In this document: piece by piece, positions 20,398 to 62,107 of the stretch
Layout of the letters: the number at the start of each line of letters is the position of its first letter
Numbering within the stretch: the first letter of the stretch is position 1
Source of the DNA: a virus
IMG/VR virus record: IMGVR_UViG_3300009157_000002
Location: 9,949 to 73,948 of that record
Strand: one strand, 5' to 3'
Length of the DNA stretch: 64,000 nucleotides
Position numbers and translations under genes: made by a program
Notes under the pieces: model-generated
Databases searched by the model: none
Seen by the model: the letters and a program-made list of their open reading frames with translations, nothing else
What the model was told of the DNA's origin: nothing

Positions 20398-21683
20398 GTG
20401 CAGGCAAAGGGTTTTATAATATACACTATCTTGAAAGCCTTACTACCAAAGGACAATAACAGAATGAAAATAAATATTTAAATAAATTATTAAAAAACAA
20501 TGAAACACAATGAAAAGCAATGCAGTAAAGGGATTGAGCTATATATAATATATTTGAAGGTTAAAAGATTAGTAAGCTTAGTAAGAACTAAAGTATGAGT
20601 AAAAACTAAAGTAAGACTAAGAATAAAACGAACAGCTTTAGATCAAATCAAAACAATCCAGCGGTTGCACCCCCGAAGGGGAAGATAACACCCACCCAAA
20701 CCAAACAAAGAATTAACAGCAGCTTAAACAAGATCAAAAAAAAAACAACCTAACTAAATAACAATACATCATATATATTAAACGTAAATACTATAATTAA
20801 AAGCAAAGGCGCGCAAACGTAAGCGGGTGATACATTACCATTACCATACATGAGATCGTTCGCCATATCAATGCTAATGCAGCCATATTATTTAGAATCA
20901 TTCTAAATAAGGTTAAAAAGCTGTTTTAAGTGCATCTACGTTCAAATGGCTTCATTTGGTTGACTTTTTGAGTAAATAAAAAAAAAGGTAATCATATTGA
21001 ACCATTACTCAATAGATGAACGTAGAATAGGGTAAATTCCTGAATTATAGAAATTAACTTTCCTTTTAGCTCAAAATAAAGCTCAAAAACCCTCAAATTG
21101 AACGAATTTTACCGGCTGGAGACAAAAATACATAGCCGCTTATACTTGTCTTATAATTATTATTATGTTAAATAGAATTGAACTATCAATGTTTTCTTGC
21201 CCATTTAGGCAGTATTTAGCTTATCCCCTACCCTATCGCTTTCCTTTTACAGTTGTAGAAATATAAGATCCCCTATAAGGCAAAATATATAAGGCATGAA
21301 TAAATAAGCTAATGAATAATAGATCGTGGAACTAAGCGCAGGAAAAGCCCCTAAAAAAAGCATTCTTTTTTGTACAGGGGGCCGCCTTGATTCAAAAATA
21401 CATTCTCTTTTTACTGACCGGCAGGGGTCATATTATACCATTATACTCCTACTAAGACAAATCCACTTTGGTTATTGGTATTGTTGATTGATTCCTGCTA
21501 GTACCTTTTCAATTTAGGATTGGTATTGTTGTTAGATTGTATTCTTACTAACATAATCTTTCTCTTGGTTATAGGGAACAATAGTTGGTTGTTGGGTGTT
21601 ACTCTTTACTAAGACATTTCTGGTTTATGTAGTAGAATAATTGTCTTTTGTTTGTTATATAATCTTGGTAGGGTTAACGAGGG
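20398..21683. other. Long non-coding region (candidate genome end/pac or control region)
   Basis: About 1.3 kb with no ORF in the track; A-rich to T/G-rich skew switch; inverted repeats; one 23-bp box. Confidence 0.5.
20888..20910. promoter_or_regulatory. 23-bp palindromic operator (Fur/PerR-like box), copy 1
   Basis: TTATTTAGAATCATTCTAAATAA. Confidence 0.75.
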
Positions 21684-21968
21684 TTATGGTCCCTTTTCAC
21701 AGTCCCTTTGTTCTTTTAATTCAAATCGTTTAACCATTCTGTTATACATTTTGAGTTCAAAGGAAAGATCTTCTTCATATCGGATAGCTCGTGTTTGCCA
21801 TTCTTGAAAGCAGGTTTTACAGTAGTAAGAATTTAACACGGCGATATAAAATCCAGTGGTGGGTTTTTCAATACAGGAGTCGCAGAAACCGGGACCAATT
21901 TGCATGATTTCCTGATCTGACATTTCCAAAATGAGGAATCCGGAAGAGTGGATGATTTGTTTAGCCAT
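21684..21968 (-). CDS. Zn-finger phage protein
   Basis: CDSC..GFYIAVLN.YYCKTC. Confidence 0.7.
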   Translation of the reverse strand: MAKQIIHSSGFLILEMSDQEIMQIGPGFCDSCIEKPTTGFYIAVLNSYYCKTCFQEWQTRAIRYEEDLSFELKMYNRMVKRFELKEQRDCEKGP

Positions 21969-22068
21969 GTATATTTTTTATATCCGAGCCATCTTAGATA
22001 CTCCCTATATGTGATCGCATATAATTTCGTGTTTTTGCCCAAAATCGATGCGATCACATATAATAAAC

Positions 22069-22269
22069 TTAGGTTATTGTGTTTCTTTGATCAATTTCTG
22101 CCTTTATCATAGCACATATTTCAAAGTTTTCTGCTTGCTCGTTGGTTATGAGCATATTTTCCAGCCAATCTGTCGGACATGATCTAAATAATAAGGGATA
22201 GTTATTACAAAATAGTTTCATCTCAAATTCTTCGGCGAAACAATTGTGTTCAGGTAGAAATACTTTCAT
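22069..22269 (-). CDS. Small protein with UVR-like C-terminal motif
   Basis: ENFEICAMIKAEI. Confidence 0.55.
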   Translation of the reverse strand: MKVFLPEHNCFAEEFEMKLFCNNYPLLFRSCPTDWLENMLITNEQAENFEICAMIKAEIDQRNTIT

Positions 22270-22278
22270 TGGTTGGGA

Positions 22279-22815
22279 TCATAGTAGTTGAATTCTCATA
22301 GTCATGTCATGCTGGGCGGGTTGATCACCGCCAGCATAGGGAAAGTTATACCTGCCAAAAATAGGAACCCCTGAAAAGTCAAAGGGTACTGCTCTAAGTT
22401 TGGCATTTGTTGTTTCTGTATCTGAAATAACTAATACTTGATTCTTTTTCCTGTTAAAAAGCAAATCAAAACGGTGTGGTTCACCTGGCGGAGCTTCAAA
22501 TAATAATGCTTTTCCAGGATCTTCATTAGGTCCAGGATCTCTTACACCGTGATTATGGGCGTAGTAATGATACTGGAGGAGGCCATTTTGTTTGTAGCAA
22601 TTCCAGCCGGACCTAAAGCTATTATTATCTGGGTCCCAACCCCAGGTTACGCCAAAGAATTTATTGATGTCCTGGTTGTTTGCGTTTCCAAGATTATATA
22701 CACAGTTGGCATCCGGTGTAACTATAAAGGACAGGCTCTCTAATCCAAAATGAGTTTTGAAGTTTATTCCACTTGCGTAGAAGTTTCCTTCTTTTATTGT
22801 GTAGAGTTCTTTCAT
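22279..22815 (-). CDS. Hypothetical beta-sandwich protein (lectin/lyase-like?)
   Basis: DINKFFG..NSFRSGW..FPYAGGDQPAQHD; fold guess only. Confidence 0.5.
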   Translation of the reverse strand: MKELYTIKEGNFYASGINFKTHFGLESLSFIVTPDANCVYNLGNANNQDINKFFGVTWGWDPDNNSFRSGWNCYKQNGLLQYHYYAHNHGVRDPGPNEDPGKALLFEAPPGEPHRFDLLFNRKKNQVLVISDTETTNAKLRAVPFDFSGVPIFGRYNFPYAGGDQPAQHDMTMRIQLL

Positions 22816-22979
22816 GGCATTTTATTTATTGCTTCGATTATACCTTTAAATGTTAACAACAATACTTCTTTCTTTGCAGATGGATCTATTTGCACGTAAA
22901 CATCATAAACATCGTTTCCTTCCTCCGATTTTTTTATTGATGGATGTAGTTCAACTTTTGCAATCAATTTTACACTCAT
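22812..22979 (-). CDS. Hypothetical protein
   Basis: Likely start MSVKL; ATGA coupling to the next gene. Confidence 0.5.
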   Translation of the reverse strand: MSVKLIAKVELHPSIKKSEEGNDVYDVYVQIDPSAKKEVLLLTFKGIIEAINKMP

Positions 22980-22989
22980 AGTCCTTTTG

Positions 22990-23373
22990 TTATTTTTTAT
23001 CATTATTAAACCAATCTGCCAATTCTTGCTCACTGTATGAGCTTAGAACCTCGATTGCTTTTTTCTTTAGTGTTGCATAGTCCAACGTTTTTATTTCTTC
23101 CTTCTCTTCTTTCTCCTTTGAGGTGAGGGCTTTATATTCCTCCAATACTTGCGAAAAAGTGTTATATGGCAATACTCCTGCTCTATAAAAATAACGACCT
23201 ATTTTCTCTATCTCTTCGTCCGTTATTGATTGAGTAGGTAGTGCTTGTTTAAAACCATCTATAAATGAATCTTTAAAATTAACTTGATTTGTATTTGTAT
23301 ACCCTTTCAGCTTTGGATATTTAACTAAAACATAATCAATCGCTAAATTCTCTATTTCTTCTTCCGTTTTCAT
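22990..23373 (-). CDS. Hypothetical protein
   Basis: TEEEIE/TDEEIE repeated motif. Confidence 0.6.
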   Translation of the reverse strand: MKTEEEIENLAIDYVLVKYPKLKGYTNTNQVNFKDSFIDGFKQALPTQSITDEEIEKIGRYFYRAGVLPYNTFSQVLEEYKALTSKEKEEKEEIKTLDYATLKKKAIEVLSSYSEQELADWFNNDKK

Positions 23374-23666
23374 TATGTTTTTGTTATTATTAACCAGGTT
23401 GAAAATACTACAAATGCAATAGCGATTATCCCTACAACAATTGCCTCTACCTTTTTTCCATCAAACACCCATGTATTCCTAATTCCAGCAAAAACAGCTA
23501 ATAGAACAGATCCTCCAAGTAGAGAGAATATAATTAAGGGCAGGATTCCTACGTCTATATTGAATAGCTTTCCTGCCGTTATTCCAAGGACTAGCAAGAC
23601 AATTAACGTGATGGTGTAGTATTTATATTTCTTTAACGCTTCCCAAATTCGTTTTAACGTTTTCAT
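23373..23666 (-). CDS. Membrane protein (3 TM)
   Basis: Three hydrophobic segments. Confidence 0.65.
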   Translation of the reverse strand: MKTLKRIWEALKKYKYYTITLIVLLVLGITAGKLFNIDVGILPLIIFSLLGGSVLLAVFAGIRNTWVFDGKKVEAIVVGIIAIAFVVFSTWLIITKT

Positions 23667-23679
23667 AGGTTTGGTTTAT

Positions 23680-23916
23680 TTAGTTTTGTTGCGTTTTTTC
23701 ATAATCAATAGCTTTATTCAAATCTGGCTCGTAAGTTCCTGCTTTGCAAGGTATTTCCATGACAATCTCGTCATTTACGTGCAGATAGCCGGCGTTAATT
23801 TTACACCATTTAATAGCCAATTGTTTTGTTGGAGCCTCAACATTTTCTCCAGCAAATTCAACCAACTCGCCTGTTATATTATGAATTGCAAAAATTGATG
23901 TTCCCCAAACTTTCAT
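23680..23916 (-). CDS. Hypothetical protein
   Basis: Likely start MKVWGT. Confidence 0.55.
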   Translation of the reverse strand: MKVWGTSIFAIHNITGELVEFAGENVEAPTKQLAIKWCKINAGYLHVNDEIVMEIPCKAGTYEPDLNKAIDYEKTQQN

Positions 23917-23999
23917 AGGTTGATTATTACAATAAAGATAAATATTTATTCCGTGTCTAAACCATAGCCCATAGCAGGTTGTCTGCCGCATTGATTTCT

Positions 24000-24248
24000 C
24001 TAATCCTGCTCGTAAACCTTTAATTCATTTTCATCGAGATCGCTTTTGGTTATAGGTTTGAAGTTTAATTTTTCATAGTTGTTAAGGTCCTGTAATATAC
24101 AAGAATGTGCTATTTTTAATAGGTTTACTACTTTCGTTATAAACTTTGACCCACCCTCTTTAACGTGCTCGTTTCCTTCCTTAATAAGAGATTCAAATCT
24201 TTTTAAGTGAGAGCGTTCAAACTGGTATCCTTCTTCGTTGAGTATCAT
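24000..24248 (-). CDS. Hypothetical protein with HigA-N-like ILNEEGY start
   Basis: 82 aa, ATGA-coupled. Confidence 0.5.
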   Translation of the reverse strand: MILNEEGYQFERSHLKRFESLIKEGNEHVKEGGSKFITKVVNLLKIAHSCILQDLNNYEKLNFKPITKSDLDENELKVYEQD

Positions 24249-24873: not shown

Positions 24874-24899
24874 AGAGTGATAGTGTTGGTTTTAAATTA

Positions 24900-25632: not shown

Positions 25633-25688
25633 TTTTTTTATGGTTTGTTTATACTAAATAATTTTACTTCTTTTTACTCCATCCCATA

Positions 25689-26546
25689 TTAGACAAAGAG
25701 ATTTTGTTGCGAAACATAAGGAGTAAGCCTCTTTATAGTCATTTCGCAATACTCTTTGCTTATTTCGGACATCACACATTTTCTATTCATTAAATGACAC
25801 ATTTTTGCAACCGTTCCACTCCCACCGAAAGGCTCATAAATAACATCACCTTCGTTGCTCCAACTGTAAATATGGTCCTGTGCTAACTCTTCTGGAAAAG
25901 GAGCAGGATGCCCTGTTGGATTGCTTCCCGTTCCATAGCACCATAAATTCGCTCTGCGGCTAAATTCTGGAGTGGTGAAAAACTCATTCTTTTTAACGTT
26001 TGCCCCTTTATTTATAACCGCATCCTTTTTTCTTTTTGTCCCTACTGTCTTATTTACATGGTCGCATATAAAATTTATCGTTTTCGGTTTCCCTTTACTT
26101 AGAACAAACATATACTCAATCACATTGTAGTATCTTCCTTCTGTTGGTATTCTTGATGCTTTCTCGTAAAACATGGTATCATATAAGTTAAAGCCAATTT
26201 CTTTAAAGTATAAAGCCTGTTTAAATGAACTTCCTGTTTCGCTTCCATTTATAGTAGCATCACCCACAACCCATATTACTACGCCGCCTTCTTTTGTAAT
26301 TCTAAATAAGTTATCCGCCACATTTTTAAAAAAGAATGAATACCCATTATATATCCTCATTTGATCATACGGCGGTGAAGTCACCGTTAAATCAATGCAG
26401 TTATTCGGCATCCTAATCATAGTATCAAGGTTACTCTCATTATAAATCTCAATGCCGGAGTGCTTCCAAAAAGGCTCTGTATAAATTTGCATTGGCAATA
26501 TGCCTGCATGATGATCTAATTTCAATTTGTCACTTTGCATTGTCAT
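25689..26546 (-). CDS. DNA N4-C/N6-A methyltransferase (beta class)
   Basis: TSPPY, HPAPFP and EPFGGSGT motifs. Confidence 0.9.
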   Translation of the reverse strand: MTMQSDKLKLDHHAGILPMQIYTEPFWKHSGIEIYNESNLDTMIRMPNNCIDLTVTSPPYDQMRIYNGYSFFFKNVADNLFRITKEGGVVIWVVGDATINGSETGSSFKQALYFKEIGFNLYDTMFYEKASRIPTEGRYYNVIEYMFVLSKGKPKTINFICDHVNKTVGTKRKKDAVINKGANVKKNEFFTTPEFSRRANLWCYGTGSNPTGHPAPFPEELAQDHIYSWSNEGDVIYEPFGGSGTVAKMCHLMNRKCVMSEISKEYCEMTIKRLTPYVSQQNLFV

Positions 26547-26656
26547 TTTTATAACTCTTCTTTAATTTTATTTATGTCTACAGTTTTAAGCCACAATACA
26601 AAAAGATTGCTGCTCCTTTGCCTGGACTAACTTTCGCGCGATTGCAGAAAATTATT

Positions 26657-26674
26657 TTACATTTTTAAATGTAA
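26657..26674. promoter_or_regulatory. Operator, exact reverse complement of the 10610 site
   Basis: TTACATTTTTAAATGTAA in a divergent promoter interval; TACATTTG -7 box at 26691. Confidence 0.65.
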
Positions 26675-27289: not shown

Positions 27290-27486
27290 GCGAGGTAAGC
27301 GAGCAAATAATTTTTTTACGAAAAACAAAAAAAATATCACAGGCAAAACTTGCCAAGGTATTAGGGATAAGTCGGGGATACTATATAAGAATGGAGAGTA
27401 ATGACGACCTGTTTACAAAAAAAAGGATCAAACAGATCGGGGAGTATTTTGGTAAAAAAGTTTTAATATTATTTATAGATGAGTAA
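27286..27486 (+). CDS. XRE-family HTH protein
   Basis: LRKTKKISQAKLAKVLGISRGYYIRME. Confidence 0.8.
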   Translation: MSEVSEQIIFLRKTKKISQAKLAKVLGISRGYYIRMESNDDLFTKKRIKQIGEYFGKKVLILFIDE

Positions 27487-28111
27487 ATACCAATTAACAG
27501 AACAACTTAACGGGCGCGTTGATGTGTGTTTAAAAGAAAAAAGGCATAGCTATATAAATACCATAAGGGCTGGATTGGATCACTATATTGAAGAATATAA
27601 AAGAGCCTTGAAGTATGAAGAACCTCAAAATGTAGCCTGCGGCTTTTACGGATTGGTTGATGAAAAGTTAAAAGAACAGAGTGTATCGGATTTTGCAAGC
27701 TGTAAAAAATCCTGTAATTTTTGTTGCAGAATAGCCGTTAATATAAGCAAAGAAGAGGCTTATCTATTAAGAAATGAATTTAAGGATATAGTTAATGAAA
27801 AGCAGTCACAACTAGCTATTCAGAAATCCTGTAAAACTGCGGAGGATTGGAATAAACTCTCTTATAAGGACAAGGCTTGTATTTTTCTTGGAGATGATGG
27901 AGCTTGCAGAGTTTACCAATACAGACCTATTAGTTGTAGAAAATATCATGTTGCATCACCAGCAGAACGGTGTGATAATGAAATAAATCCTGAAGGCATA
28001 GTAGCTGGTTTAGTTCACGACGAAGTTGAAATTATCGCTTCCGCTATTATTAATGTAAGCGAAGTTAAATTACTTCCTGAAATGATTTTAAAAGCAGAAC
28101 TAGAAAAATGA
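27479..28111 (+). CDS. YkgJ-family (CxxCxxCC) Fe-S/Zn cluster protein
   Basis: SCKKSCNFCC..CIFL..CRVYQYRPISCR. Confidence 0.85.
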   Translation: MSKYQLTEQLNGRVDVCLKEKRHSYINTIRAGLDHYIEEYKRALKYEEPQNVACGFYGLVDEKLKEQSVSDFASCKKSCNFCCRIAVNISKEEAYLLRNEFKDIVNEKQSQLAIQKSCKTAEDWNKLSYKDKACIFLGDDGACRVYQYRPISCRKYHVASPAERCDNEINPEGIVAGLVHDEVEIIASAIINVSEVKLLPEMILKAELEK

Positions 28112-28136
28112 CACACACTTAAAATTAGTTAAAAAA

Positions 28137-28951: not shown

Positions 28952-28952
28952 C

Positions 28953-32907: not shown

Positions 32908-33249
32908 ATGTATTATATATTAGATGGGAAAACACCGAAGCGTGTTGATTTGATGGAATGGGCTAAGTTTATAGAAACCAACTGTAATCGTCATATTGGC
33001 GATACTCTTTTGAAGGTGAATAGGCATGTAAGAGTACGCATATCAACCATATTTTTAGGACTTGATTATTCTTCCTTTATTGGAGGACCGCCAATACTTT
33101 TTGAAACCATGATATTCGGAATTAAGGATGATAGCTACCAATGGCGATACACCACCTGGGAAGCGGCAGAGAAGGGCCACAAGTATGCTGTAAACCTTGC
33201 TAAAAACCATATTAAATGGATGCAAAAAACAATTAAGACCAAGGGTTAA
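32908..33249 (+). CDS. Conserved phage hypothetical protein
   Basis: STIFLGLD..PILFETMIFG..RYTTWEAAEKGH. Confidence 0.75.
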   Translation: MYYILDGKTPKRVDLMEWAKFIETNCNRHIGDTLLKVNRHVRVRISTIFLGLDYSSFIGGPPILFETMIFGIKDDSYQWRYTTWEAAEKGHKYAVNLAKNHIKWMQKTIKTKG

Positions 33250-33479
33250 TCCTCCTGCTCTTCCAAATTTTTTTCCTCTTCTTTCATATCCCTGGTTTCC
33301 TTCATCTGCTTATAAGCAATATTCGAAAGTATCCGTATTTCTGTTCTAAGAACAAGGTATTGTTTTCTTAGCCGGGTAAGGTTTACGTAACTGTTAGCCA
33401 CGTCAACCGAAGCTGCCGCATGATCCATAGCCACAATAAGTTTGATAAGCTCTTTGTGTTTTTCTAAAAAGAATCCCAT
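33246..33479 (-). CDS. Hypothetical helical protein
   Basis: 77 aa; divergent from the HTH gene across the double box. Confidence 0.55.
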   Translation of the reverse strand: MGFFLEKHKELIKLIVAMDHAAASVDVANSYVNLTRLRKQYLVLRTEIRILSNIAYKQMKETRDMKEEEKNLEEQED

Positions 33480-33502
33480 ATCTATTTTTAGACAAAAATA
33501 AC

Positions 33503-33561
33503 TTATTTAGAATGATTCTAAATAATGTATTATATTTGTTATTTAGAATCATTCTAAATAA
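33503..33561. promoter_or_regulatory. Tandem 23-bp operators (copies 2 and 3) flanking a TATATTTG -7 box
   Basis: Boxes at 33503-33525 and 33539-33561; -7 at 33531; reverse -7 at 33493-33500. Confidence 0.8.
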
Positions 33562-33566
33562 GAGAT

Positions 33567-33836
33567 ATGGAAACAGCTACAGAAAAAAAGCCCTGGGTAT
33601 CAGAAGGCATAACAGAAAAAGATCTCTGCAATCTCACCAAATATTTTCGAACGCATATCTTAAAAGTAGAAGTTGCTGACTTCGCAAAAAAGGCGGGAAT
33701 TCCGAGTTATCGAATTTCAAATTGGGAAGCACATAAAGTCACCTCAACACCATCGGATAAAATCGGACTAGCCGCAATACGAAAGATCGCAGACGCTTAC
33801 GGATATGATGCTGAAATAGTTCTCACTAAAAAATAA
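33567..33836 (+). CDS. XRE-like HTH regulator
   Basis: VADFAKKAGIPSYRISNWE..IRKIADAYG. Confidence 0.7.
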   Translation: METATEKKPWVSEGITEKDLCNLTKYFRTHILKVEVADFAKKAGIPSYRISNWEAHKVTSTPSDKIGLAAIRKIADAYGYDAEIVLTKK

Positions 33837-37187: not shown

Positions 37188-37248
37188 TATTTCTATTTAA
37201 CAATCGATTATAAGCTCAAAAACAGATATTTAATATAACAAAAATAAC

Positions 37249-37310
37249 TTATTTAGAATGATTCTAAATAAGGAATTTTTAATTATATTTGTTTTCTAGT
37301 ATTCTAAATA
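37249..37310. promoter_or_regulatory. 23-bp operator (copy 4) plus degenerate half copy in the terL/head divergent promoter
   Basis: Box 37249-37271; TATATTTG 37284-37291; reverse -7 at 37239-37246; ATTCTAAATA half site ending at 37310. Confidence 0.8.
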
Positions 37311-37364
37311 CTCTTTTTTGATTGGGAAATAGGGAGAAAACCATAAACCTAAAACAACTACAGC

Positions 37365-41774: not shown

Positions 41775-42005
41775 TTAAAGTTTGGTGTTAAGAACTCTGG
41801 CAATATTTAATAAAGTGGAAAGCGTTGGATTGTAAGTGGGATCATTTTCGATGTGTTGAATAATTCTGGTAGAGGTATCAATATAAAAAGCAAGTTCAGA
41901 TTGCGACCATTTTCTTTTTTTCCTCACCTCCTTAACCAAGGGCCCGATCAACGCCATTCTCTCCATAAGAAATCCTTTTTTTTCTTCACGGGTCAATTGT
42001 TCCAT
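41775..42005 (-). CDS. XRE-family HTH protein
   Basis: VRKKRKWSQSELA..IQHIEND..NPTLSTLLNIARVL; start MEQLTR. Confidence 0.8.
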   Translation of the reverse strand: MEQLTREEKKGFLMERMALIGPLVKEVRKKRKWSQSELAFYIDTSTRIIQHIENDPTYNPTLSTLLNIARVLNTKL

Positions 42006-42009: not shown

Positions 42010-42038
42010 TTATTTAGTGATTCTAAATAACAAATATA
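42010..42038 (-). promoter_or_regulatory. 21-bp variant operator directly after a TATATTTG -7 box
   Basis: Minus strand reads TATATTTG-TTATTTAGAATCACTAAATAA-AAAC-ATG. Confidence 0.65.
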
Positions 42039-42134
42039 AAAATAAAATTTCAAAATGTGCGGTTTAAGGCGCGCTTTATATAGCGTTTTAAATACGATGT
42101 ATGGGATGTTCCTTTGTATAAAAGCAATAGCGCC

Positions 42135-44682: not shown

Positions 44683-45567
44683 ATGCTAAAAACCTCTGAG
44701 AACGGCGACACAAAGCCAAATATTGAAATTAATGGGGAGGCGATAAATGTTCCCCTGGCAAAAACAATAACGGAACAGGCTAAAGGTCCACAGGTCACAC
44801 CACCTGTTCCAAATTTAGAGCCAGAGCCTATGATTAAACTTTCACAGGTTGACGAGATGATTAATAACCGTCTGAGTGAACTTAAAAAAGAACTAACTAA
44901 AAAGTCAGGAGGAGATTTTAACGCGAAAGATCTTACTCAGGTGCTTTCAGAAGCATTATCCAGGGATCGAGGACAGAATGGATCTACAGCATTAGTCAAA
45001 GAAGAAGATATTGACATTAATGATGTGCTTGCCGAGGATGTTATTTTCTGGAGCTATGGACATACATTCGGGATTAACAGCGAAAAGCGGAACGGACATA
45101 ATGTAATACCTCCTTACGGAAGAGCGATCCATTTTACACACAGTTGGACTGATATCCGGGGAATGGGAAAAAACAAAACTGTTTTTAAAGTGAACACTTT
45201 TAAAACAAGTTCAAAAAAAGTTGCTGATTGGTTGAGAAAAAGTCCACTGTATAAAACAAGGATTTTTGAAAACATTAAATCAGTAGCCAATATTGATATG
45301 TACTTCGCACAGAAATTAACCGATGCCGCTAATACCATTTCAGGTCTTGAGCCACCACAGGTATTACAACGGGCGCAAAACGCAGGTCTTGAAATCACAT
45401 CGGATTATGATTCTATTAGAAATCAGTTGATTCAAAAAATAGCGATGGAAGAATATGAAAAATCTAAACAAATAAGCTTAGATGCTGCGGCTCCAACGGA
45501 TCTTTCGCCTGATAAGATAATAAAGCGAACAGTTAGCAAGTCTACGACTCCAGCACCTATCTATTAA
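44683..45567 (+). CDS. Hypothetical head-region protein
   Basis: 294 aa, between major capsid and ring proteins. Confidence 0.6.
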   Translation: MLKTSENGDTKPNIEINGEAINVPLAKTITEQAKGPQVTPPVPNLEPEPMIKLSQVDEMINNRLSELKKELTKKSGGDFNAKDLTQVLSEALSRDRGQNGSTALVKEEDIDINDVLAEDVIFWSYGHTFGINSEKRNGHNVIPPYGRAIHFTHSWTDIRGMGKNKTVFKVNTFKTSSKKVADWLRKSPLYKTRIFENIKSVANIDMYFAQKLTDAANTISGLEPPQVLQRAQNAGLEITSDYDSIRNQLIQKIAMEEYEKSKQISLDAAAPTDLSPDKIIKRTVSKSTTPAPIY

Positions 45568-52837: not shown

Positions 52838-52868
52838 TATATTTGTTATTTAGAATGATTCTAAATAA
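52838..52868 (+). promoter_or_regulatory. TATATTTG -7 box immediately followed by 23-bp operator (copy 5)
   Basis: TATATTTG-TTATTTAGAATGATTCTAAATAA upstream of the ejection genes. Confidence 0.8.
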
Positions 52869-52906: not shown

Positions 52907-53689
52907 ATGGGAAAAATCGGATCAATAATAGGAAGTACGCTCGGTGGCGCACTGGGAACATTGGTCGCTCCTGGATTTGGTACTACTATTGGGGCATCGT
53001 TAGGCGGAGCTCTTGGTGGATCAGTTGGAAAAAATGGTGGTAGCGGTGATACTGGCGGTGGCGGCGGTGGTAGTACTACTGGTACCGGAGGAGCAAGCAG
53101 TCCTGGAGCTGGTATAGCTGGTGGCGCACTTGGCGCACTCCAATTAATACAAGGAATGGCTCAACAACGGAAAGCCAATAAGCTAAGGCCGGGATTGGAA
53201 GATCCGGAACAACGGATGTTTCTTAACGAAATAAACCAACGCAGAAAAGCGATGCGAAGTGGCAGTGCTTATACAGAAGATTTAAGACTGCTTGGAGGCC
53301 AGCAAGCTTCCACAAATCAGGGACTAGTTAGTGCAGGTGGCGGAGCTGGAGGCGCAACGATAAACGCATTACTTAAATCGCAAAGAGGAACAGGTGCCGC
53401 TTATGGTGGCATACTGGCAAACGCAGAAAAAACAGCAAGCGCCTACGATTCCATGTATGAAGGAGTGTTGGAGAAAGTAGCAAGCCGAAAGCTGGATCTG
53501 CAAACCTTTGAATATAATCGGGCTTTAGCAAACGCAGCTAAAAACAAACAAGCCGGAGAATCTAATATACTTGCAGCACTCGCCAGACAGGGGCCGATAA
53601 CAATGCCTGGGGCACAAAACAATACGCAGGAAGTACCAGATGAAAATGCTCCAGATGAAGGAATAATACAATATGGTGATTCTGGTTAA
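52907..53689 (+). CDS. Ejection/internal virion protein (Gly-zipper)
   Basis: GxxxG-rich hydrophobic N-terminus, A/Q-rich helices. Confidence 0.7.
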   Translation: MGKIGSIIGSTLGGALGTLVAPGFGTTIGASLGGALGGSVGKNGGSGDTGGGGGGSTTGTGGASSPGAGIAGGALGALQLIQGMAQQRKANKLRPGLEDPEQRMFLNEINQRRKAMRSGSAYTEDLRLLGGQQASTNQGLVSAGGGAGGATINALLKSQRGTGAAYGGILANAEKTASAYDSMYEGVLEKVASRKLDLQTFEYNRALANAAKNKQAGESNILAALARQGPITMPGAQNNTQEVPDENAPDEGIIQYGDSG

Positions 53690-53709
53690 CAGTAATTGCA
53701 ACAACTACA

Positions 53710-55479
53710 ATGACAGAAGAGATCTATGACAACCCGGACGCGCCGGAAGAAAGAAGCCTTGAGGAAGAGCAAGCCGCTGAAGCTGAAAGACTAGCTAATC
53801 AGCCTATTGTTACAGCCGGAGGTGTGGTTTTGCCTACACGGACCAACCGAAGTACTCCTATTGCTTCATTGATCGGAAAAAAAGATTTTGGAATAGAGCC
53901 TCTGGGCTTAAAAGATTACTATCCTACTGCCGGAGATCCGATACTGGTAGGACATTCGGCAGGAAGATATATAGGAAATCAGCCGATATATTCCGGTGCA
54001 GGAGCTTTGTATCCGTATGCTATTGTAGATGCCAGAAGAAGGGCTCTTGAACAGGCTGCCATGCTGAGTAAATTACAGGAGGAACAGGCAAGGAATGTAA
54101 AGCATGAACCTATGCCAAGTCTTACCGCTACCAAATCGGGGTTCCATGAAATTTCAATGTATAGAGCTCAAAATGAGATTAAAAAAATAAAGGCTAAATA
54201 CCCAAATGAAGCGGCTTTTTGGAAGGATTATGATGCAAGGGGAGATTCCTATTTTGAGATACAAATGGTAGCAAAGAATACAGAATCTTTTAAGCAAGGC
54301 GTGGATCAAATTTTTGTTATGAGCGATAGAATGCAAGCGGCGGAGAAGGATGGAAAATTTGTTCCAAAAGAATATCGGAATGAGTTAAACAAAATAACCC
54401 GGCAAGGCGCTGATGTAGCAGATCCGGAAATGATGTCAAAACTTACTAAATTATTTGGCCAACCTATTACCGAAAATATGGAAATTCCTATAAAGGATGC
54501 TATAGAAAATCTCTCCAAAAGAGTAGAAGAAAAATATGCAGACATTGCCAAGATAGCAAATAGAGGAGGTATGTCTGAGACAAACATAGCAGGCTTGCGA
54601 TTAAAAGAAGAGAAATCAATTTATAACGAACAAAACATAGCGGCGGAGGCAGAGAGAATTTTAGAAAACCATAAAGCAGGTGCGATCAATCAATATACAA
54701 CCCGTGAGGAAAGAGAAAAATATGAAGACGACGAACCTAAATTAATAGCCATTGCAAAAGAGGAGCTAATAAAAACGATCACCAAAACTACTCCGGTTAA
54801 ATTTAAAGAACAAATAGAAGGTTCGGTGGATAAATTACAAACAGCATATAGTTCCGGATCGGGAGAAAATTCGTATGCTAAAATGCAGGTCGCGGATGCC
54901 CCCGCCGTTTTTTTACCAAAAGAAATATCAACAAGAGAGGCACTGGGACTTGACAATGTAACTAAAGGAAAACAAGACTTTGTGGTTGATATTACATACC
55001 TGAATCCAAAGGGTATCAATCCGGAGATAGAACTACCAGCAGGAGATATTTATTCGATAGAAGAAAATGAACTTGGAAATACAGTTATTGATAAGCTGGA
55101 ACCGTTACAGGGAGTAAATTATTTTAAACCGAACCGTTTCAGAAATATTGACGGTAAACTTTTTCTTGAGGTTACTAAGAAAACAATTGAAACGGAATAT
55201 GATCCATTGACAGGACAGATTAAAACTCCTGTTGAAAGCAAATACCTAATGCCAGCTACTCCTGAGATTAAAAACAAATTGGATACCGAATTCGGAATTA
55301 GTGTTGATAAGATTATTGATTCCTATAAAAAAACAGGTGAGAAAAAAACAGAAAAATCAGGAACCAAAAAAACAAGTGTAAAGACTATTAAAAATCTGGT
55401 CGGTAAGCCAGGATATGAAGGCTATACAGAAAAAGAACTGATCGAACACTACAAAAAAGATGGGTATCAAATAGAATAA
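53710..55479 (+). CDS. Ejection/internal virion protein
   Basis: 589 aa, helical, between the Gly-zipper and giant proteins. Confidence 0.6.
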   Translation: MTEEIYDNPDAPEERSLEEEQAAEAERLANQPIVTAGGVVLPTRTNRSTPIASLIGKKDFGIEPLGLKDYYPTAGDPILVGHSAGRYIGNQPIYSGAGALYPYAIVDARRRALEQAAMLSKLQEEQARNVKHEPMPSLTATKSGFHEISMYRAQNEIKKIKAKYPNEAAFWKDYDARGDSYFEIQMVAKNTESFKQGVDQIFVMSDRMQAAEKDGKFVPKEYRNELNKITRQGADVADPEMMSKLTKLFGQPITENMEIPIKDAIENLSKRVEEKYADIAKIANRGGMSETNIAGLRLKEEKSIYNEQNIAAEAERILENHKAGAINQYTTREEREKYEDDEPKLIAIAKEELIKTITKTTPVKFKEQIEGSVDKLQTAYSSGSGENSYAKMQVADAPAVFLPKEISTREALGLDNVTKGKQDFVVDITYLNPKGINPEIELPAGDIYSIEENELGNTVIDKLEPLQGVNYFKPNRFRNIDGKLFLEVTKKTIETEYDPLTGQIKTPVESKYLMPATPEIKNKLDTEFGISVDKIIDSYKKTGEKKTEKSGTKKTSVKTIKNLVGKPGYEGYTEKELIEHYKKDGYQIE

Positions 55480-58400
55480 ATGGACGAAGAATTATTACCA
55501 CCGCCGCCGCCAAAGAAAAAAGTAGCTCCTGCACAATCGGGTGGTGAGGGCTTATTGCCTCCTCCTCCCAAAAAAAAAATTGCAGATACTACTTCCACAG
55601 AATCGGCAACTTCTTTAGAGCCATCAGCAACTCCATTACCAGTTTCTTCGGATTCGAAATTACCATCCGGATCAGGAGAGCCGGTAAGGAATAAAGTAGG
55701 CACAGTTACAGATGAGGAAAAGTCTGCTATAGAGGAATTTTTAAATAAGCCCGCGCCTGTTGTTACCGGAGGTAAAAAAATAAATTTAACTACGCCACCT
55801 GATCCTGCAAAAAATTTACTAACGCAAAAGCCAAAAGAGTTATTTGCAGAAGAAAACAAAATTGCTGTTGAAAAACGAAACGAACTAAATCAAAAGATTA
55901 AAACGGACCTTACTGGCAACTTTAAAAACTTTGTCTTAAAAGATAACCTTAGTACGGAGCAATATTTTTCTGGTCTTGAAAAAGCAGGTTATAATCCTAT
56001 TGACGTTCAGGATGCCAAGAAAACATTTTTAGAATCGGAGGGTATTAACTTAAACCCAGAGCCAAAGATTAATAAATTTTATTCCACCTTAAATACATTT
56101 AATCAGCGGTTAACCGATGCGGCTATGGCAATACCGGAGGCAATTGCTATTGGCGCTTATCAGATCGATAATAAACTATTAGGAGTAGATAAGAATCTGG
56201 AGGAGTACGCCACTTACCAACTGGCTAAGGCAACAAAAAAATTAGCCAAAGAATTTTGGCCGACCAACCCTGAGTTTGAAAGTGACTTAACCACAAAGCT
56301 TGCCTCTGGAGGAGCAGACATTGTTTCATTTATGGCTGGAGGTGCTCTGGCAAAGGGACTTAAAATATCAGCCACAGCAACAATGGCTGGTATGGGAGCG
56401 GTACAAAACGCTGTTCCGGAATTTGAAACCGCACGTAATATTACCACTGATGTAAACAACCTTAGCTTTGAACAGTTTGTTCAAAAATATGCTAAATCCG
56501 AACAAGATTATCCAACGCTCTTAGCGCAATATAATCAGTTAAAAGGTAAAGATCCGGATCAAGTAGGATGGGATATGTTTATTAAAGCGGGCTTGGTAGG
56601 GACTACCGAAGCCATTCCAATAAATCTTGCACTATCCAGGTTTGATAAAATAACCGGTGGTAAGATGCGAAATGTTATTTTAAATTCTGTAAAAGGGGGG
56701 ACCGAAGAAGCGTTCCAGGAGATTGTATCGCAATACCTGAATAATATAGCGGCAACATCTGTTTACGATGAGCAACGAAATATTTATACAGGAATGGTTG
56801 ATGCTGGCGTGCCTGCGTTTATACTTGGAAGTTTATTAAATGGAATAGGCTCTTCGATAGCAGCAAAAATACAAGAGCCGGGTTTAACCAAAGAACAACT
56901 TGCCGAATTACAACTAGCGCAAAAAGAAAACACCGAATTGATTGAATCGCTCCCGGAAGATAAAGGTGAGGTCGTTAAAAAACCTATTACGAACGAAAAA
57001 ATCAGTGCCCTGGAGAAACAAAAGGAAAGTATAGAAAACCAGATTGCAGGCAATGAAAATATTTCTCCACAGGCAAGGACCTTACTGATTACACAGGTAG
57101 AAAAAATAGATGAACAGATCGAGAATGAAAAAGCTACTGAAACAGAGAATAGGATTACCCAAGGAAAGAACGATGCTGCTGTTGCCAGATTAAATGAGGA
57201 GAAAGCAAAACTGGAAGAAGACATTAAAAACGTTCCCGATGAAGCTAAGAATGTTATTCAGCAAGAAATCAATGCTATTGAAACGCAGATAAAGGAACTT
57301 ACTGAACCAAAAACTCCTGTTGATGATATAGGAGGACAAAGTAAAGATGTCAATGCTAAAAACGATGCAGAACTATTGTCCGAGGATATTAATAAAAAGA
57401 AAAAGCAGCTATTGGAACTGGAAGAAGATATGACACTGGATCCCAATATTAAGGCCGCGAAAATGGCCCCTATTGAAAATGATATTAAAGAATTAAGCAC
57501 CAAATTACAAGCTATATACGATCCAAAATTAAAAGCGGAGCTGGAAGCAAAAGCCGCAAAGGAAGCAGAAAAAAATGCAAAGGCCGAAACCCCTCCAGCA
57601 AAAAAGGTGGAAACGGAAAAAACAAAAGAAGAGGCGCAAGAAGGGTTTGACCAAGCAGGTAAAAAATCAAAAGAAGAAAATAGCGGAAAACCTCTTGCCG
57701 AATATTTATTACAAAATTCAAAAGTTGGTGATACGATTACCGATAAGAATGGCGAAGGCTATGAAGTAACCGAAGTTAGAACCACAAGAAAAGGCACAAA
57801 AGAATTGATGTTAATTCCGTTTACAATAGTTGATGGCAAGAAAATCTATAATTATCAAGGGGTGAGATTGATCTCGGAAACATTGAAGAAAGGAGCCGAG
57901 GATTTATATGAGCTTCATTATAGCAATTATGAAGGCGAGAGGATTATAGAAAGATATACTTATAATAAAAAAACAGAAGAAACAAAACCAGATGAAACCA
58001 AAAAAACCCAAAAAGCCGAAGTACTAAAACAGGAACCAGAAGATGTTTTACCAGAAGAACGTAAATTTTCTTCGGAAGGTGAATACAATAGGTATGTTTC
58101 TACAGAAAGTAATGATCCACATGAGATTATACAGTCTTACCAATCCACAAGAGATTTAAACAAAACGGATGTTAAAGAATCCATTTTAGCGGAAGGCTTA
58201 GGAAAAATTAAAGAAAGTGGCTATATTCGTTTTGGCGATAAGAATAACCTAGTTGATAAGAATAATAAAAAAACGGGGAAGGCCAGGGTATATTTCAGCG
58301 AGAAAGGTTTACACATTGACCAGGCTGCTCAGGAACTATCAAGTCAGTATGGCATAGAAATAACGCCGAATGATATTATTGAATTTATTGATAAATACCC

Positions 58401-61400
58401 GAATGGCAAAAAGGATTTCTATAAGCAGGAAAACGAATTAGCAGGAAAATTAAAAGAACGCTATAAGAAAGTTACCGGGAAAAACTTAACCGAAAAAGAA
58501 ATTTTACGCCGCAAGGCTGAACTTGGAAAACAATTGGATCCTGGTGGTGTTTCGCAAAACATACTCCAAGAAATAAATTCAGTATTAGAAACACCGTTTA
58601 CCGATATTACAGATTTTGAGAGCGACCTAGCAAAGGCGAAAGATAAAAAAGCATTCTTTAAACCATTAAACAATCTAACATCCAAACGCTTAAAGGAATT
58701 ACAGGCGCTTGTAAACGAAATAAAAAATGGAAAAACCATCATCCACTTCGACGAAGCAACCGGCAAGTACTCCGCTGTTGGACTTCCTTATCGAGGAAGC
58801 GACAAGGCGGGCGGACAAAAAGCAGAAGAACCTCCCTCCAGCTACACCCCCTCCAACTCCACCCAAAGAGAAGTAGTAAAAGCGCCTGCGCCTAAAAAAC
58901 TTTCCGGAAAAAAACTGTCCGAACTTTCTGATCAGGAATTAAAAGACCTTGGATTTTCCAGTATCCACGAGGCACTAAACAGCACAAAAAAACGCGTAGA
59001 AGGCGCGAACGATCCTGCTTTATTTAGTGGTGATGAATCTACAGCAGTAACAGCGGAAACAATGCCGGTTGAATATGTTGAAGCGGCAAGCAAACACAGA
59101 CAGGAAGAAGCAAAAGTAATAGCTGAAGAAGAGCGGGCAAAAGTTATAGAAGGCTTGGATCAAAAAATTAAAGAACTAGAAAAATCTGTTTTTGGCACAG
59201 CTACCAAAGAGCCTAGCGACTTTAAACCAAAAGAGGGCGCAAATCAAAACCGTGTTTTACCAGGAGTAGTGGAATCTGGAAAATTACAAGACAAATTTTT
59301 TGCAGATCGCATGAGTAAGTTTGGAGAGGGGCTGGCTAGAGAAGTAGAAAAATTATCTGTATCCAACAACCAAATAGCCAGAGCGGTAGCAGATGTTATA
59401 CGAGCCATCTTTCCAACCACAGCTATAACCAAAGGACAAATTATTAGATCCGAAGACTTTCACGGGGATATTAATAGAGCCACAGGAGACCCAGGAAAAA
59501 TAAACGAACTTTTAAAAGAAATCATTGGCAATGATAAAATTTCCTTATCGAAAATAGACCGCGTTATAGATCCTGATTTTTATAAACAGCTTACCAAAGA
59601 AGAGTTTATTGAAAAAGTTAAGGCGGAGATGGATGAAAACTCTCCATTGCTGGACTTGTATGATGAATACAATGAAAAATTCAAATCACAACCACCAATT
59701 ACTTATGAGGATCTGACACCAGCAGAAAAAATAGTTCACGATCTGGTAAAGAAAATTAATGATCTCGTACACGATGTAAGTTTTGCAACAGGCGGAATTA
59801 CCCATGAGACCTACTTAAAAAACAAAGACAAATACGCAGGGAGGTTGTATGATATTTTTGAGCTTCCATCCGATATGCAAAAATCAATCAACGAACAATA
59901 TAGCAAGGCAACCGATAAAATATTTAAACAACGTACAGAGGTTGACGACTGGAAGAAGCTGCATAAAATAGAAGATCCCGTTTACGCAGCGGCAACCCGT
60001 TTAAGACAAGTAATGATCAACAAGGCGGTATTTGATTACGCAGAACACGTTGTTAAAACAAAACCTGAATTTGTTTCGGATGTGGAAAAACCAGGCTTTA
60101 CAAAACTGGCTGACAAAGGATATGGTAAACTATCCGGTAAATATGTTACTCAAAATATTGCAGAAGATTTTAAAGGGTTTTTCTATCAAAACGAAACACT
60201 TAATAAGCTTTACGATATATTAAAAAAGTATGACACCTGGGGGCCGAGACGTTTTTACAAAAAACTTTTTACGGTATATAATCCAGGTGTTCACGTTGGC
60301 AATATAATGGGAGATAATATGTTTGCTTTTTTACAAGGTATTGATTTTATTAGCTTAAATTATAATTTAGGATTTGCAAAAAGGGAGATCAACGGATACG
60401 GAGCCACCTATCGTTATCTTATAAAAAAGGGATTATTAAAGAGCGATCTTACACGCGGGGACCTTGTTAAATCGTTGGAGGTTTTATCAAACATGCAAGA
60501 GGAGGCAGCCGCTTCTACAACACCATTTAAAACATTTTTAAAAAACATAAAGAAAAACGTAAACAAAGGGGCGGGCAAAGCAGAAAGTGTATACGGTGGA
60601 GTGGATGATCTTTATAAAATATCTGCCTTTAAATGTTTAGTTGATGGTGGCTATACTGCGGAACAAGCTGTTGAATTGGTTGCAGAAGGATTTCAAAATT
60701 ACAAACGAGTCGGTAAGCTATACGATTTCACGTCCAAAATCCCGGTAGTTGGTCAACCCTTTGGAAAATTCTCAGGCGACTTAGCCAGGATCCTTAAAAA
60801 CGCAGGGGCAAAACGGCCATTAAATCTGATCGCTTTTGGAGCAACGTTACATGCTATAGCTGCACTTGCAAGCCATTCGTCAGGTGAATCAGAAGAAGAA
60901 AGAAAACTTAGGGAGAACAGGCCAGGAGCAGCAAAAATTCCGTTACCAGATATACTTGGTGGCAATATCTCACTGGATTGGTTGTTGGGTAACAAAGTTT
61001 TAAACGTAGCCCGCTTTGTAAGCCCTGTATACATTTATGGAAACTTAGATGAAAATAATGACAAATTAGAGTTAATTAAGAAACTGCTTCCTATTTCCTT
61101 TGAGACCGTTGACCGTACCAATAATCCAACAGGGCCAACAGCCGTAACCATTGCAAAAAACATTAATGATCCGTTATTTACTTGGTTGCAGTTGCTACCT
61201 AAAATAGATAGTGATTTTAAAGGGAGGCCAACTATTGACCCAACCGCTACAAAATATAAACCAAGCAAAATAAGCGATAATGAGCGGGTATTTAATGTGT
61301 TGCGGTTCTTTGGAAGACAGTATATCCCTTATGGTGCATTGGGAGACGACTTAATATACGCTGCACTGGGTAAGGAAGGCTATTATAGTAAAAAAACAGT

Positions 61401-61749
61401 AACCGAGGTGTTCGCTAGATTTGTGGGCGTGAAACTGGAAGCTTTTCCAGAGGAAAGATATAAAGAAATTAGTACCAATAAAATAAAATCTCTTCATTAT
61501 CAATTTAAGGATGATTTAGGCGAGAAGATGCAAAATATCCCAATGGATAAGCCAATAGATAAAGATGAACGGATCAAGATTAATAAAATAGAAACTATTA
61601 AGTCCAAATTTATAAACAACGCGACAAAAATCAGCAGAGTAAGGGCTTTGCTAGAGAAAAAGAAAATCACCTTTCAGCAATCTAATAATATTATAGCCCC
61701 TATACTCGAAGAACAGGCCAAACTTTTAGCCGACTTGAAAGATCTATAA
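55480..61749 (+). CDS. Giant ejection (polyvalent-type) virion protein
   Basis: 2089 aa; hydrophobic G/A segments with GGTEEAFQE motif, long coiled coil, C-terminal NPGVHVGN..FGKF domain. Confidence 0.7.
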   Translation: MDEELLPPPPPKKKVAPAQSGGEGLLPPPPKKKIADTTSTESATSLEPSATPLPVSSDSKLPSGSGEPVRNKVGTVTDEEKSAIEEFLNKPAPVVTGGKKINLTTPPDPAKNLLTQKPKELFAEENKIAVEKRNELNQKIKTDLTGNFKNFVLKDNLSTEQYFSGLEKAGYNPIDVQDAKKTFLESEGINLNPEPKINKFYSTLNTFNQRLTDAAMAIPEAIAIGAYQIDNKLLGVDKNLEEYATYQLAKATKKLAKEFWPTNPEFESDLTTKLASGGADIVSFMAGGALAKGLKISATATMAGMGAVQNAVPEFETARNITTDVNNLSFEQFVQKYAKSEQDYPTLLAQYNQLKGKDPDQVGWDMFIKAGLVGTTEAIPINLALSRFDKITGGKMRNVILNSVKGGTEEAFQEIVSQYLNNIAATSVYDEQRNIYTGMVDAGVPAFILGSLLNGIGSSIAAKIQEPGLTKEQLAELQLAQKENTELIESLPEDKGEVVKKPITNEKISALEKQKESIENQIAGNENISPQARTLLITQVEKIDEQIENEKATETENRITQGKNDAAVARLNEEKAKLEEDIKNVPDEAKNVIQQEINAIETQIKELTEPKTPVDDIGGQSKDVNAKNDAELLSEDINKKKKQLLELEEDMTLDPNIKAAKMAPIENDIKELSTKLQAIYDPKLKAELEAKAAKEAEKNAKAETPPAKKVETEKTKEEAQEGFDQAGKKSKEENSGKPLAEYLLQNSKVGDTITDKNGEGYEVTEVRTTRKGTKELMLIPFTIVDGKKIYNYQGVRLISETLKKGAEDLYELHYSNYEGERIIERYTYNKKTEETKPDETKKTQKAEVLKQEPEDVLPEERKFSSEGEYNRYVSTESNDPHEIIQSYQSTRDLNKTDVKESILAEGLGKIKESGYIRFGDKNNLVDKNNKKTGKARVYFSEKGLHIDQAAQELSSQYGIEITPNDIIEFIDKYPNGKKDFYKQENELAGKLKERYKKVTGKNLTEKEILRRKAELGKQLDPGGVSQNILQEINSVLETPFTDITDFESDLAKAKDKKAFFKPLNNLTSKRLKELQALVNEIKNGKTIIHFDEATGKYSAVGLPYRGSDKAGGQKAEEPPSSYTPSNSTQREVVKAPAPKKLSGKKLSELSDQELKDLGFSSIHEALNSTKKRVEGANDPALFSGDESTAVTAETMPVEYVEAASKHRQEEAKVIAEEERAKVIEGLDQKIKELEKSVFGTATKEPSDFKPKEGANQNRVLPGVVESGKLQDKFFADRMSKFGEGLAREVEKLSVSNNQIARAVADVIRAIFPTTAITKGQIIRSEDFHGDINRATGDPGKINELLKEIIGNDKISLSKIDRVIDPDFYKQLTKEEFIEKVKAEMDENSPLLDLYDEYNEKFKSQPPITYEDLTPAEKIVHDLVKKINDLVHDVSFATGGITHETYLKNKDKYAGRLYDIFELPSDMQKSINEQYSKATDKIFKQRTEVDDWKKLHKIEDPVYAAATRLRQVMINKAVFDYAEHVVKTKPEFVSDVEKPGFTKLADKGYGKLSGKYVTQNIAEDFKGFFYQNETLNKLYDILKKYDTWGPRRFYKKLFTVYNPGVHVGNIMGDNMFAFLQGIDFISLNYNLGFAKREINGYGATYRYLIKKGLLKSDLTRGDLVKSLEVLSNMQEEAAASTTPFKTFLKNIKKNVNKGAGKAESVYGGVDDLYKISAFKCLVDGGYTAEQAVELVAEGFQNYKRVGKLYDFTSKIPVVGQPFGKFSGDLARILKNAGAKRPLNLIAFGATLHAIAALASHSSGESEEERKLRENRPGAAKIPLPDILGGNISLDWLLGNKVLNVARFVSPVYIYGNLDENNDKLELIKKLLPISFETVDRTNNPTGPTAVTIAKNINDPLFTWLQLLPKIDSDFKGRPTIDPTATKYKPSKISDNERVFNVLRFFGRQYIPYGALGDDLIYAALGKEGYYSKKTVTEVFARFVGVKLEAFPEERYKEISTNKIKSLHYQFKDDLGEKMQNIPMDKPIDKDERIKINKIETIKSKFINNATKISRVRALLEKKKITFQQSNNIIAPILEEQAKLLADLKDL

Positions 61750-61752
61750 AAA

Positions 61753-62007
61753 CTAATCTCTTTCTATTTTAACTTTTATGGCAGGGGCATAATTAAACGC
61801 AAACGCGTCAACCTCTTTAACTTTAACATCAAGGATGGAGGGCATGGACACTACTTTAACGTTCATGGATCCATCGGTATTTAAAGGAACATTTACAAAC
61901 CTTGATTCAGCGTTTGCATTTGTAATACCGATGTTACGGAATACAATTACTGTTAACGCGATAGCAATAACAGTAAGAATGGTTTTTGTGTAGAGGTCAG
62001 TTTTCAT
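61753..62007 (-). CDS. Small exported/membrane moron protein
   Basis: MKTDLYTKTILTVIAIAL signal/TM; opposite strand to the virion genes. Confidence 0.65.
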   Translation of the reverse strand: MKTDLYTKTILTVIAIALTVIVFRNIGITNANAESRFVNVPLNTDGSMNVKVVSMPSILDVKVKEVDAFAFNYAPAIKVKIERD

Positions 62008-62065
62008 ATTTTTTTAGGTTTTGAATAAAGGTAATAAACAGTCATACGACATTTTTAAATATTTG

Positions 62066-62107
62066 TTATTTAGAACGATTCTAAATAAGGAAATTGTGTT
62101 ATATTTG
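62066..62107 (+). promoter_or_regulatory. 23-bp operator (copy 6) and TATATTTG -7 box
   Basis: TTATTTAGAACGATTCTAAATAA at 62066-62088; -7 at 62100-62107. Confidence 0.8.

Follow-up and report, generated by a model that had tools for sequence, protein, structure and literature searches.

Which regulator reads a 23-bp palindrome that recurs at the packaging and virion promoters of the phage in IMG/VR record IMGVR_UViG_3300009157_000002, and to which signal would it tie the production of virions? The stretch analysed, referred to here as the window, is 64,000 nucleotides (nt) long and corresponds to bases 9949–73948 of the 73,948-bp virus record, which has direct terminal repeats and is rated complete. 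A preliminary description of this DNA had proposed that the palindrome, TTATTTAGAATnATTCTAAATAA, is a Fur/PerR-like operator through which a metal sensor of the host locks late gene expression, making it dependent on iron or peroxide. Our analysis points to the ferric uptake regulator (Fur) of the host as the reader, and we put the probability that host Fur represses the box-bearing late promoters at roughly 65%.

Five exact copies of TTATTTAGAATnATTCTAAATAA are present in the window and a sixth copy carries a single mismatch (Table 1). They are accompanied by a 21-bp variant in which one arm is short by 2 nt and by a decayed box that has retained one arm. No match to TTATTTAGAATnATTCTAAATAA arose in 100 dinucleotide-preserving shuffles of the window, and no additional copy was found in the first 9.9 kb of the genome, which lie outside it. 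All of the copies listed in the preliminary description, including the variant and the degenerate site, were recovered, and comparison with the open reading frames (ORFs) of the window agreed with its statement that they occur only between genes. The −7 promoter boxes that it had placed next to them were also found where it had put them. The octamer TATATTTG lies on the + strand at 33531, 37284, 52838 and 62100 and on the − strand at 42031–42038, and TATTTTTG lies on the − strand at 33493–33500 and 37239–37246. Five of the nine TATATTTG octamers of the window sit within 12 nt of a box, and six of the seven box copies are located 0–12 nt from a box of the form TAnnTTTG; the exception is the copy at 20888, which had already been described as lacking a nearby −7 box.

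By its sequence, the palindrome is the Fur operator of the Bacteroidota, because its core is a published Fur box, its copies in host genomes lie next to iron genes and its spacings to promoters are the same in hosts and phage. A literal text search of the literature showed that the inner 19-mer is identical to ATTTAGAATTATTCTAAAT, the Fur box of Riemerella anatipestifer, which Guo et al. (2017, PMC5609570) predicted from the genes that lost their normal regulation when fur was deleted. Purified R. anatipestifer Fur shifts promoter fragments bearing ATTTAGAATTATTCTAAAT in electrophoretic mobility shift assays (PMC5609570), and deletion of one such box in a bidirectional promoter derepressed the gene, as did deletion of fur or iron limitation (PMC11967795). 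The Fur box of Flavobacteriales that had been cited at the outset is thus on record for R. anatipestifer, with both binding and box-deletion data. Five of the phage copies fit all 18 specified bases of ATTTAGAATTATTCTAAAT and one has a single mismatch, the consensus being that of R. anatipestifer.

The scan of Bacteroidota genomes that had been suggested as a check was positive. The exact 23-mer occurs in more than 120 bacterial genome stretches, nearly all of them from Bacteroidota, with every order represented, together with Balneolaceae and Ignavibacteriaceae. Of the host ORFs directed away from a box and beginning no more than 200 nt from it, 100 were considered, and 13 of these contain a TonB Plug domain. 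Other box-proximal ORFs encode imelysin, DUF4856 proteins, P-type ATPases, cation efflux proteins, Fe/Mn superoxide dismutase, glutamyl-tRNA reductase (hemA), c-type cytochromes and FUR itself, and FeoAB is found behind boxes in a second set of host loci. In a control set of 100 ORFs located at least 2 kb from a box in the same loci, no TonB family had two members. The box-to-promoter spacings in host genomes cluster at −3, 4–6 and 11–12 nt, as they do in the phage.

The same comparison separates the two sensors that had been proposed together. The PerR option, with its peroxide signal, is not supported, because the regulon context in the hosts is iron uptake and because the fourth base of each arm differs from that of the Per box: position 4 and its mirror position are G/C in the palindrome, not T/A as in PerR boxes of the TTATAATnATTATAA type. 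The sole match in the literature to a PerR list was to a weak, unregulated site.

The boxes adopt two layouts relative to the promoters. One places the box immediately behind TATATTTG, over the point where transcription should begin; it is seen at 33531/33539, at 52838/52846 and, on the − strand, at 42038/42030, and a decayed example is at 37284/37292. The other puts the box upstream of the −7 box at a distance of 2, 5, 11 or 12 nt, in the place expected for the −33 element; these promoters run leftward to gene 33246–33479 and to terL, and rightward from 33531, 37284 and 62100. The −7 box at 52838–52845 comes after the stop codon of the gene for a 1635-residue protein. The divergent regions 33480–33566 and 37188–37364 have a 34-nt string in common and the late promoters fall into repeat families D1, D2 and D7, which marks these promoters as copies of one promoter cassette.

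Table 1 Fur-type boxes and associated genes in the window (positions count from the first base of the window).
Feature	Position	Strand	Context and evidence
Perfect Fur box, centre C	20888–20910		Orphan, in non-coding 20398–21683 (1.29 kb), without nearby −7 box
Perfect Fur box	33503–33525		2 nt from the leftward −7 box 33493–33500 of gene 33246–33479(−); 5 nt upstream of the rightward −7 box 33531–33538
Perfect Fur box	33539–33561		Directly after TATATTTG 33531–33538; over the expected transcription start; ends 5 nt before the ATG of gp33567
Putative XRE-type helix-turn-helix (HTH) regulator, 89 residues (gp33567)	33567–33836	+	PHROG phrog_8, E 1.6e-5; first gene behind the double box
Terminase large subunit (TerL), 806 residues	34767–37187	−	Leftward from divergent region 37188–37364; tblastn against annotated TerL, E 3e-6, 65% query coverage
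Perfect Fur box	37249–37271		2 nt from the terL leftward −7 box 37239–37246; 12 nt upstream of the portal-operon rightward −7 box 37284–37291
Decayed box	37292–37310		Directly after −7 box 37284; right arm ATTCTAAATA retained, left arm degenerate (repeat family D7)
Portal protein, 744 residues	38723–40957	+	Operon from 37365; Atlas feature score 0.98, TM 0.75 to P22_portal-type clusters (predicted structure)
XRE-family HTH protein, 76 residues	41775–42005	−	Pfam HTH_3 PF01381, E 5e-13
21-bp box variant	42010–42030		Directly after − strand −7 box 42031–42038; 4 nt before the ATG of the HTH_3 gene
Major capsid protein (SU10/crAss-type), 417 residues	43365–44618	+	Atlas feature score 0.98, TM 0.84 to SU10_MCP clusters; weak PDB match to capsid protein
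Perfect Fur box	52846–52868		Directly after −7 box 52838–52845; precedes operon 52907–61749 (260, 589 and 2089 residues)
Fur box, one mismatch	62066–62088		11 nt upstream of −7 box 62100–62107 of the last operon (62163 to genome end)

The identification of TerL, the portal protein and the major capsid protein (Table 1) bears out the earlier claim that packaging and virion genes lie downstream. For the capsid operon, which begins at 42114, no TAnnTTTG box was present between 42031 and the operon start and no box-linked promoter was found. Most late proteins gave nothing from Pfam or PHROGs, and the 1635-, 589- and 2089-residue proteins have no recognisable family in either. A virion RNA polymerase within the 2089- or 1635-residue protein was considered and rejected, as neither has a PDB match or a DxDxD motif; iron-binding tail-fibre motifs were likewise rejected, HxH being absent or single in the large proteins. 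The single-sequence structural model of gp33567 (predicted local distance difference test score 49) was taken for its five-helix secondary structure only, with no fold search. The non-coding segment that contains the orphan box (20398–21683) has no ORF of 60 residues or more, and the Rfam and tRNA scans of the window, which were empty, found no Rfam family or tRNA in it.

From this arrangement, most late units would start from a host-type promoter that combines a near-consensus −7 box with a consensus Fur box, the latter covering either positions −33 to −12 or, immediately behind the −7 box, the transcription start. Boxes of this kind stand at terL, at the portal operon, at the operons at 52907 (large proteins) and 62163 (terminal), and at the two small HTH regulator genes. 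We infer that iron-loaded host Fur would bind these boxes and that its binding would block host RNA polymerase at the box-bearing late promoters, so that packaging and virion operons would stay silent while the cell, a lysogen included, has ample iron. The block would be released when Fur loses its metal. Alternatively, release could come from a rising number of phage genomes, each of which would titrate Fur with its 5–7 top-affinity sites. Virion production is thus probably tied to the iron state of the cell.

The phage itself appears to supply neither component of this scheme. A phage-encoded Fur or sigma factor was rejected as the regulator, since PF01475 gave no match at E ≤ 1 across the 73,948-bp genome and sigma-70 region 2 (PF04542) gave none in the phage; both absences had been noted in the preliminary description. 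Its proposal that a host metal sensor locks the late genes is accordingly retained as far as iron is concerned, with the identity of the Fur operator, the virion targets and the lack of a phage Fur or sigma factor in its favour, and is given up for PerR and peroxide. The phage is temperate: the left arm of its genome codes for an integrase whose arm-binding domain is of the Bacteroidota type, and also for RecT, a PDDEXK nuclease and two DNA methylases. The early region also encodes a protein with a CxxCxxCC ‘putative zinc- or iron-chelating’ domain (27479–28111; PF03692, E 1.4e-6), a metal-related gene in a phage whose late genes bear iron-sensor sites.

Perfect sites are concentrated in the phage. 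Five host genomes of 2.6–6.6 Mb, chosen for having a perfect box, contain one perfect copy each and 1–6 copies within two mismatches. With five perfect copies in 74 kb, the phage has a perfect-site density more than 200 times that of the host genomes compared.

The relatives of the phage do not have this concentration of boxes. The family to which its TerL belongs counts at least 80 clusters and 277 viral loci, on phage contigs of 60–73 kb, and none of its members matches a Pfam terminase model. No other repeated palindrome was found among 80 TerL relatives, and the exact cassette strings of the phage occur in no other viral contig. Because the TerL relatives have boxes at chance level and the cassette strings recur in no other viral contig, the multi-box layout is attributed to this lineage and not to descent from the wider TerL family. 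Close relatives were found neither by megablast in the phage collection nor by single-protein scans of viral and metagenome contigs, and no prophage relative was present among the 401 Bacteroidota genomes searched. The 41 metagenome stretches that carry ‘TTTG plus box’ are unrelated to this phage.

The centre base distinguishes phage boxes from chromosomal ones. Among the matches listed, chromosomal boxes outside prophage-like DNA have 70 A/T and 38 G/C centres, which corresponds to background composition, whereas prophage-like copies in genomes have 2 A/T and 10 G/C centres. The IMG/VR copies listed have 14 A/T versus 88 G/C centres, or 13 versus 30 when counted by independent flank group. 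Viral boxes also favour G at the first flanking base. All six boxes of the window have a G/C centre, as do those of the cultured phages Freya, Danklef and Arctus_1, which are described below. A methylation override, in which the G/C centre creates GANTC for the two phage methylases, was rejected because PF01555 shows no association with the type of centre: among box-bearing viral records it was found in 4 of the 20 with a G/C-type box and in 4 of the 13 with an A/T-type box, and it is missing from three complete phages of the G/C type. The two methylases of this phage are beta-class N6/N4 DNA methylases (2232–3560(−) and 25689–26546(−)), and GANTC is under-represented in the window (132 observed versus approximately 170 expected, z −2.9).

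Several of these observations weigh against repression by host Fur. Classical Fur logic silences virion genes in iron-replete cells, and lytic growth then needs an override. Two phage HTH genes are located directly behind boxes, in the manner of autoregulated repressor genes. Since a single cassette gave rise to the late promoters, its duplication, and not selection at each site, may account for part of the perfection of the boxes. The 80 TerL relatives (profile-found, 0.9 Mb, 40–45% identity) contain boxes at the level of shuffled sequence only. Finally, the G/C centre and flank bias of the phage boxes exceed what Fur binding alone explains.

The arrangement recurs in phages unrelated to this one. 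The exact 23-mer occurs in more than 116 IMG/VR contig stretches, and the reversed palindrome of the same composition occurs in no viral contig. The flanks of the viral boxes form 43 unrelated groups among the matches listed, and the commonest viral geometry is a box followed after 12 nt by a −7 box. The genes right behind the viral boxes listed are phage genes and not iron genes; those of known function encode the portal protein (five cases from at least three PHROG families), TerL, the terminase small subunit (TerS), the head maturation protease and, in one case, a primase. A tail-fibre gene common to eight contigs also lies right behind viral boxes, and two of the G/C-centred boxes in bacterial genomes stand in front of tail-fibre genes of prophages. 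The complete box-bearing phages have 1–4 boxes each, compared with six in this phage.

Searches of deposited phage genomes with blastn revealed near-perfect boxes in the Polaribacter phages Freya and Danklef (Freyavirus; NC_062746 and NC_062745), the Leeuwenhoekiella phage Arctus_1 (PP314354) and the Prevotella Lak phages. Freya_1 and Danklef_1 each have three boxes, 1–15 nt upstream of TATATTTG, before the portal gene, the tail operon and the gene for a large tail protein. The boxes of Arctus_1 have 1–3 mismatches. They occur in the immunity region, behind a methylase gene, in the gap that separates terL from the portal gene, and 11 nt ahead of the tail-fibre −7 box. Freya, Danklef and Arctus_1 thus resemble this phage in having perfect or near-perfect G/C-centred boxes near TATATTTG before virion operons, although they have siphovirus-type genomes unrelated to it. 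The immunity-region site of Arctus_1 (L382:1694) is a Fur-like box with three mismatches in the divergent region between a gene for an S24-peptidase (CI-like) protein and the early operon; iron sensing may therefore also reach the lysis–lysogeny switch in that phage. The boxes of the Prevotella Lak-B megaphages (MK250020–MK250028, near position 353,900), which are gut phages, have two mismatches over 27 nt.

Freya and Danklef differ from this phage in encoding a divergent Fur-family protein of their own. The 142-residue products of Freya_1 gp09 (4082–4510) and Danklef_1 gp73 (44806–45234), whose genes lie directly upstream of terS, are annotated as ‘ferric uptake regulator family protein’. They pass the Pfam FUR threshold (32 bits) with 26% identity to host Fur, but have no CxxC motif and only four histidines. 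The Freya protein reached a best E value of only 0.93 in a tblastn search against this phage, and no FUR match was found in 33 other box-bearing viral records, eight of them complete. The main text of the paper describing Freya and Danklef mentions neither Fur nor iron. These distributions raise the possibility, to which we give slightly less than an even chance, that Fur-boxed virion operons are a widespread strategy that arose repeatedly in Bacteroidota phages, in marine Flavobacteriia, gut Bacteroidales and prophages alike, with a phage-typical G/C-centred box; at least one genus, Freyavirus, would have captured a CxxC-less Fur to run or override the gate, and host iron status would then directly set virion production.

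Among the alternatives to host Fur, the strongest is that a phage DNA-binding protein, either gp33567 or the HTH_3 protein of 41775–42005(−), is the main reader of the box, whether by repressing or activating the late genes or by competing with Fur and displacing it, with the likeness to a Fur box being due to mimicry or site sharing. We consider this unlikely. A ‘−7 box plus box’ cassette immediately precedes each HTH gene, as is usual for an autoregulated phage regulator, but the two proteins are unrelated to each other and the box at the HTH_3 gene itself is the broken one (42010). A phage-borne reader has a precedent in the Fur homolog beside terS in Freya and Danklef; however, host iron promoters and more than 100 unrelated stretches of viral DNA have the same box, and 0.98 Mb of box-bearing viral DNA contained no sequence homologous to either HTH protein at E 1e-3. 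The G/C centre and flank signature, which is missing from chromosomal Fur boxes, could point to a second reader, yet all 22 specified bases are those of the host operator. The box is not distributed like the private operator of a CI/Cro-type repressor: it is phylum-wide in the hosts, it is present in unrelated phages that lack these HTH proteins, and it is missing from the TerL relatives. The alternative reader offered in the preliminary description is therefore weakened by the host-wide box and the lack of HTH homologs in box-bearing viral DNA, while the position of both HTH genes behind boxes still speaks for it.

A separate operator family fits the phage’s own repressor better than the box does, which also counts against an HTH reader of the box. 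The palindrome TTACATTTnnAAATGTAA is found at 10610–10627, 10724–10741, 11767–11784 and 26657–26674, with three copies near the integrase/immunity region and one in a divergent early promoter region that contains additional TTACATTTG half sites. This second family is probably the operator of the phage’s own repressor.

Still less probable, in our estimate, is that the boxes serve mainly in trans as a Fur sponge, with replicating DNA (5–7 top-affinity sites per copy) derepressing host iron uptake and possibly a TonB-type phage receptor, and with control of the phage’s own promoters being secondary. The density of perfect sites, more than 200 times that of host genomes in which one perfect box per genome was seen, and the orphan copy at 20888, which has no promoter, would suit such a role. 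A sponge would have no need, however, of the strict promoter-overlap geometry found in six of the seven copies, and most other box-bearing phages have only 1–4 boxes, placed at the starts of virion operons. A structural element without any regulator (an RNA hairpin, terminator or packaging site) is very improbable: despite the palindrome’s perfect inverted symmetry, its location between operons and the longer palindromes that surround some viral copies, the arms are A+T-rich around a 1-nt centre with no consistent U-run, several copies are upstream of their −7 box and hence untranscribed from it, the genome contains seven copies, host iron-uptake genes have the identical sequence in front of them, and Rfam gave no match.

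If host Fur does gate the late operons, virus production would be linked to iron supply across unrelated phages of an abundant phylum; iron is a chief limiting nutrient in marine waters and is competed for in the gut. A test is feasible now, as cultured phage–host pairs with the same layout exist (Polaribacter with Freya and Danklef, and Leeuwenhoekiella with Arctus_1). The box layout would also provide a way to locate late-gene promoters in otherwise unannotated Bacteroidota phages. We found no paper in the literature on sets of virion operons under Fur boxes that are repeated in unrelated phages, some of which have their own Fur.

Among the closest known systems is that of R. anatipestifer, whose Fur boxes have the same 19-bp core as the phage boxes and likewise overlap −33/−7-type promoters, including bidirectional ones, within approximately 100 bp of the start codon. 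In R. anatipestifer, Fur represses iron-uptake genes when iron is present, whereas the phage boxes are found instead at packaging and virion operons; unlike the R. anatipestifer sites, the phage boxes are perfect, number 5–7 in 74 kb and are all G/C-centred. Fur sites on phage DNA have precedents as well. The stx1 promoter belongs to a Fur-regulated phage accessory gene. Lambdoid coliphages likewise carry a Fur-regulated cargo operon, sitABCD (PMC6969025), and in Clostridioides difficile the expression of a prophage operon that has a Fur site fell rather than rose in a fur mutant (PMC6311696). As in this phage, a host Fur operator on phage DNA brings phage-borne genes into the host iron regulon in all three cases. 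However, sitABCD and stx1 have single sites on cargo (moron) genes and the C. difficile case concerns one prophage operon, and none of them puts most virion operons under Fur boxes. Other host sensors are read by phages in a similar way, through LexA boxes in temperate phages (CTXphi, 186 and GIL01) and through NtcA and PhoB sites in cyanophages. These switches share with the design proposed here the use of a host stress or nutrient sensor read via the sensor’s own operator. In this phage, by contrast, the sensor would be Fur, the signal iron and the targets the late structural operons.

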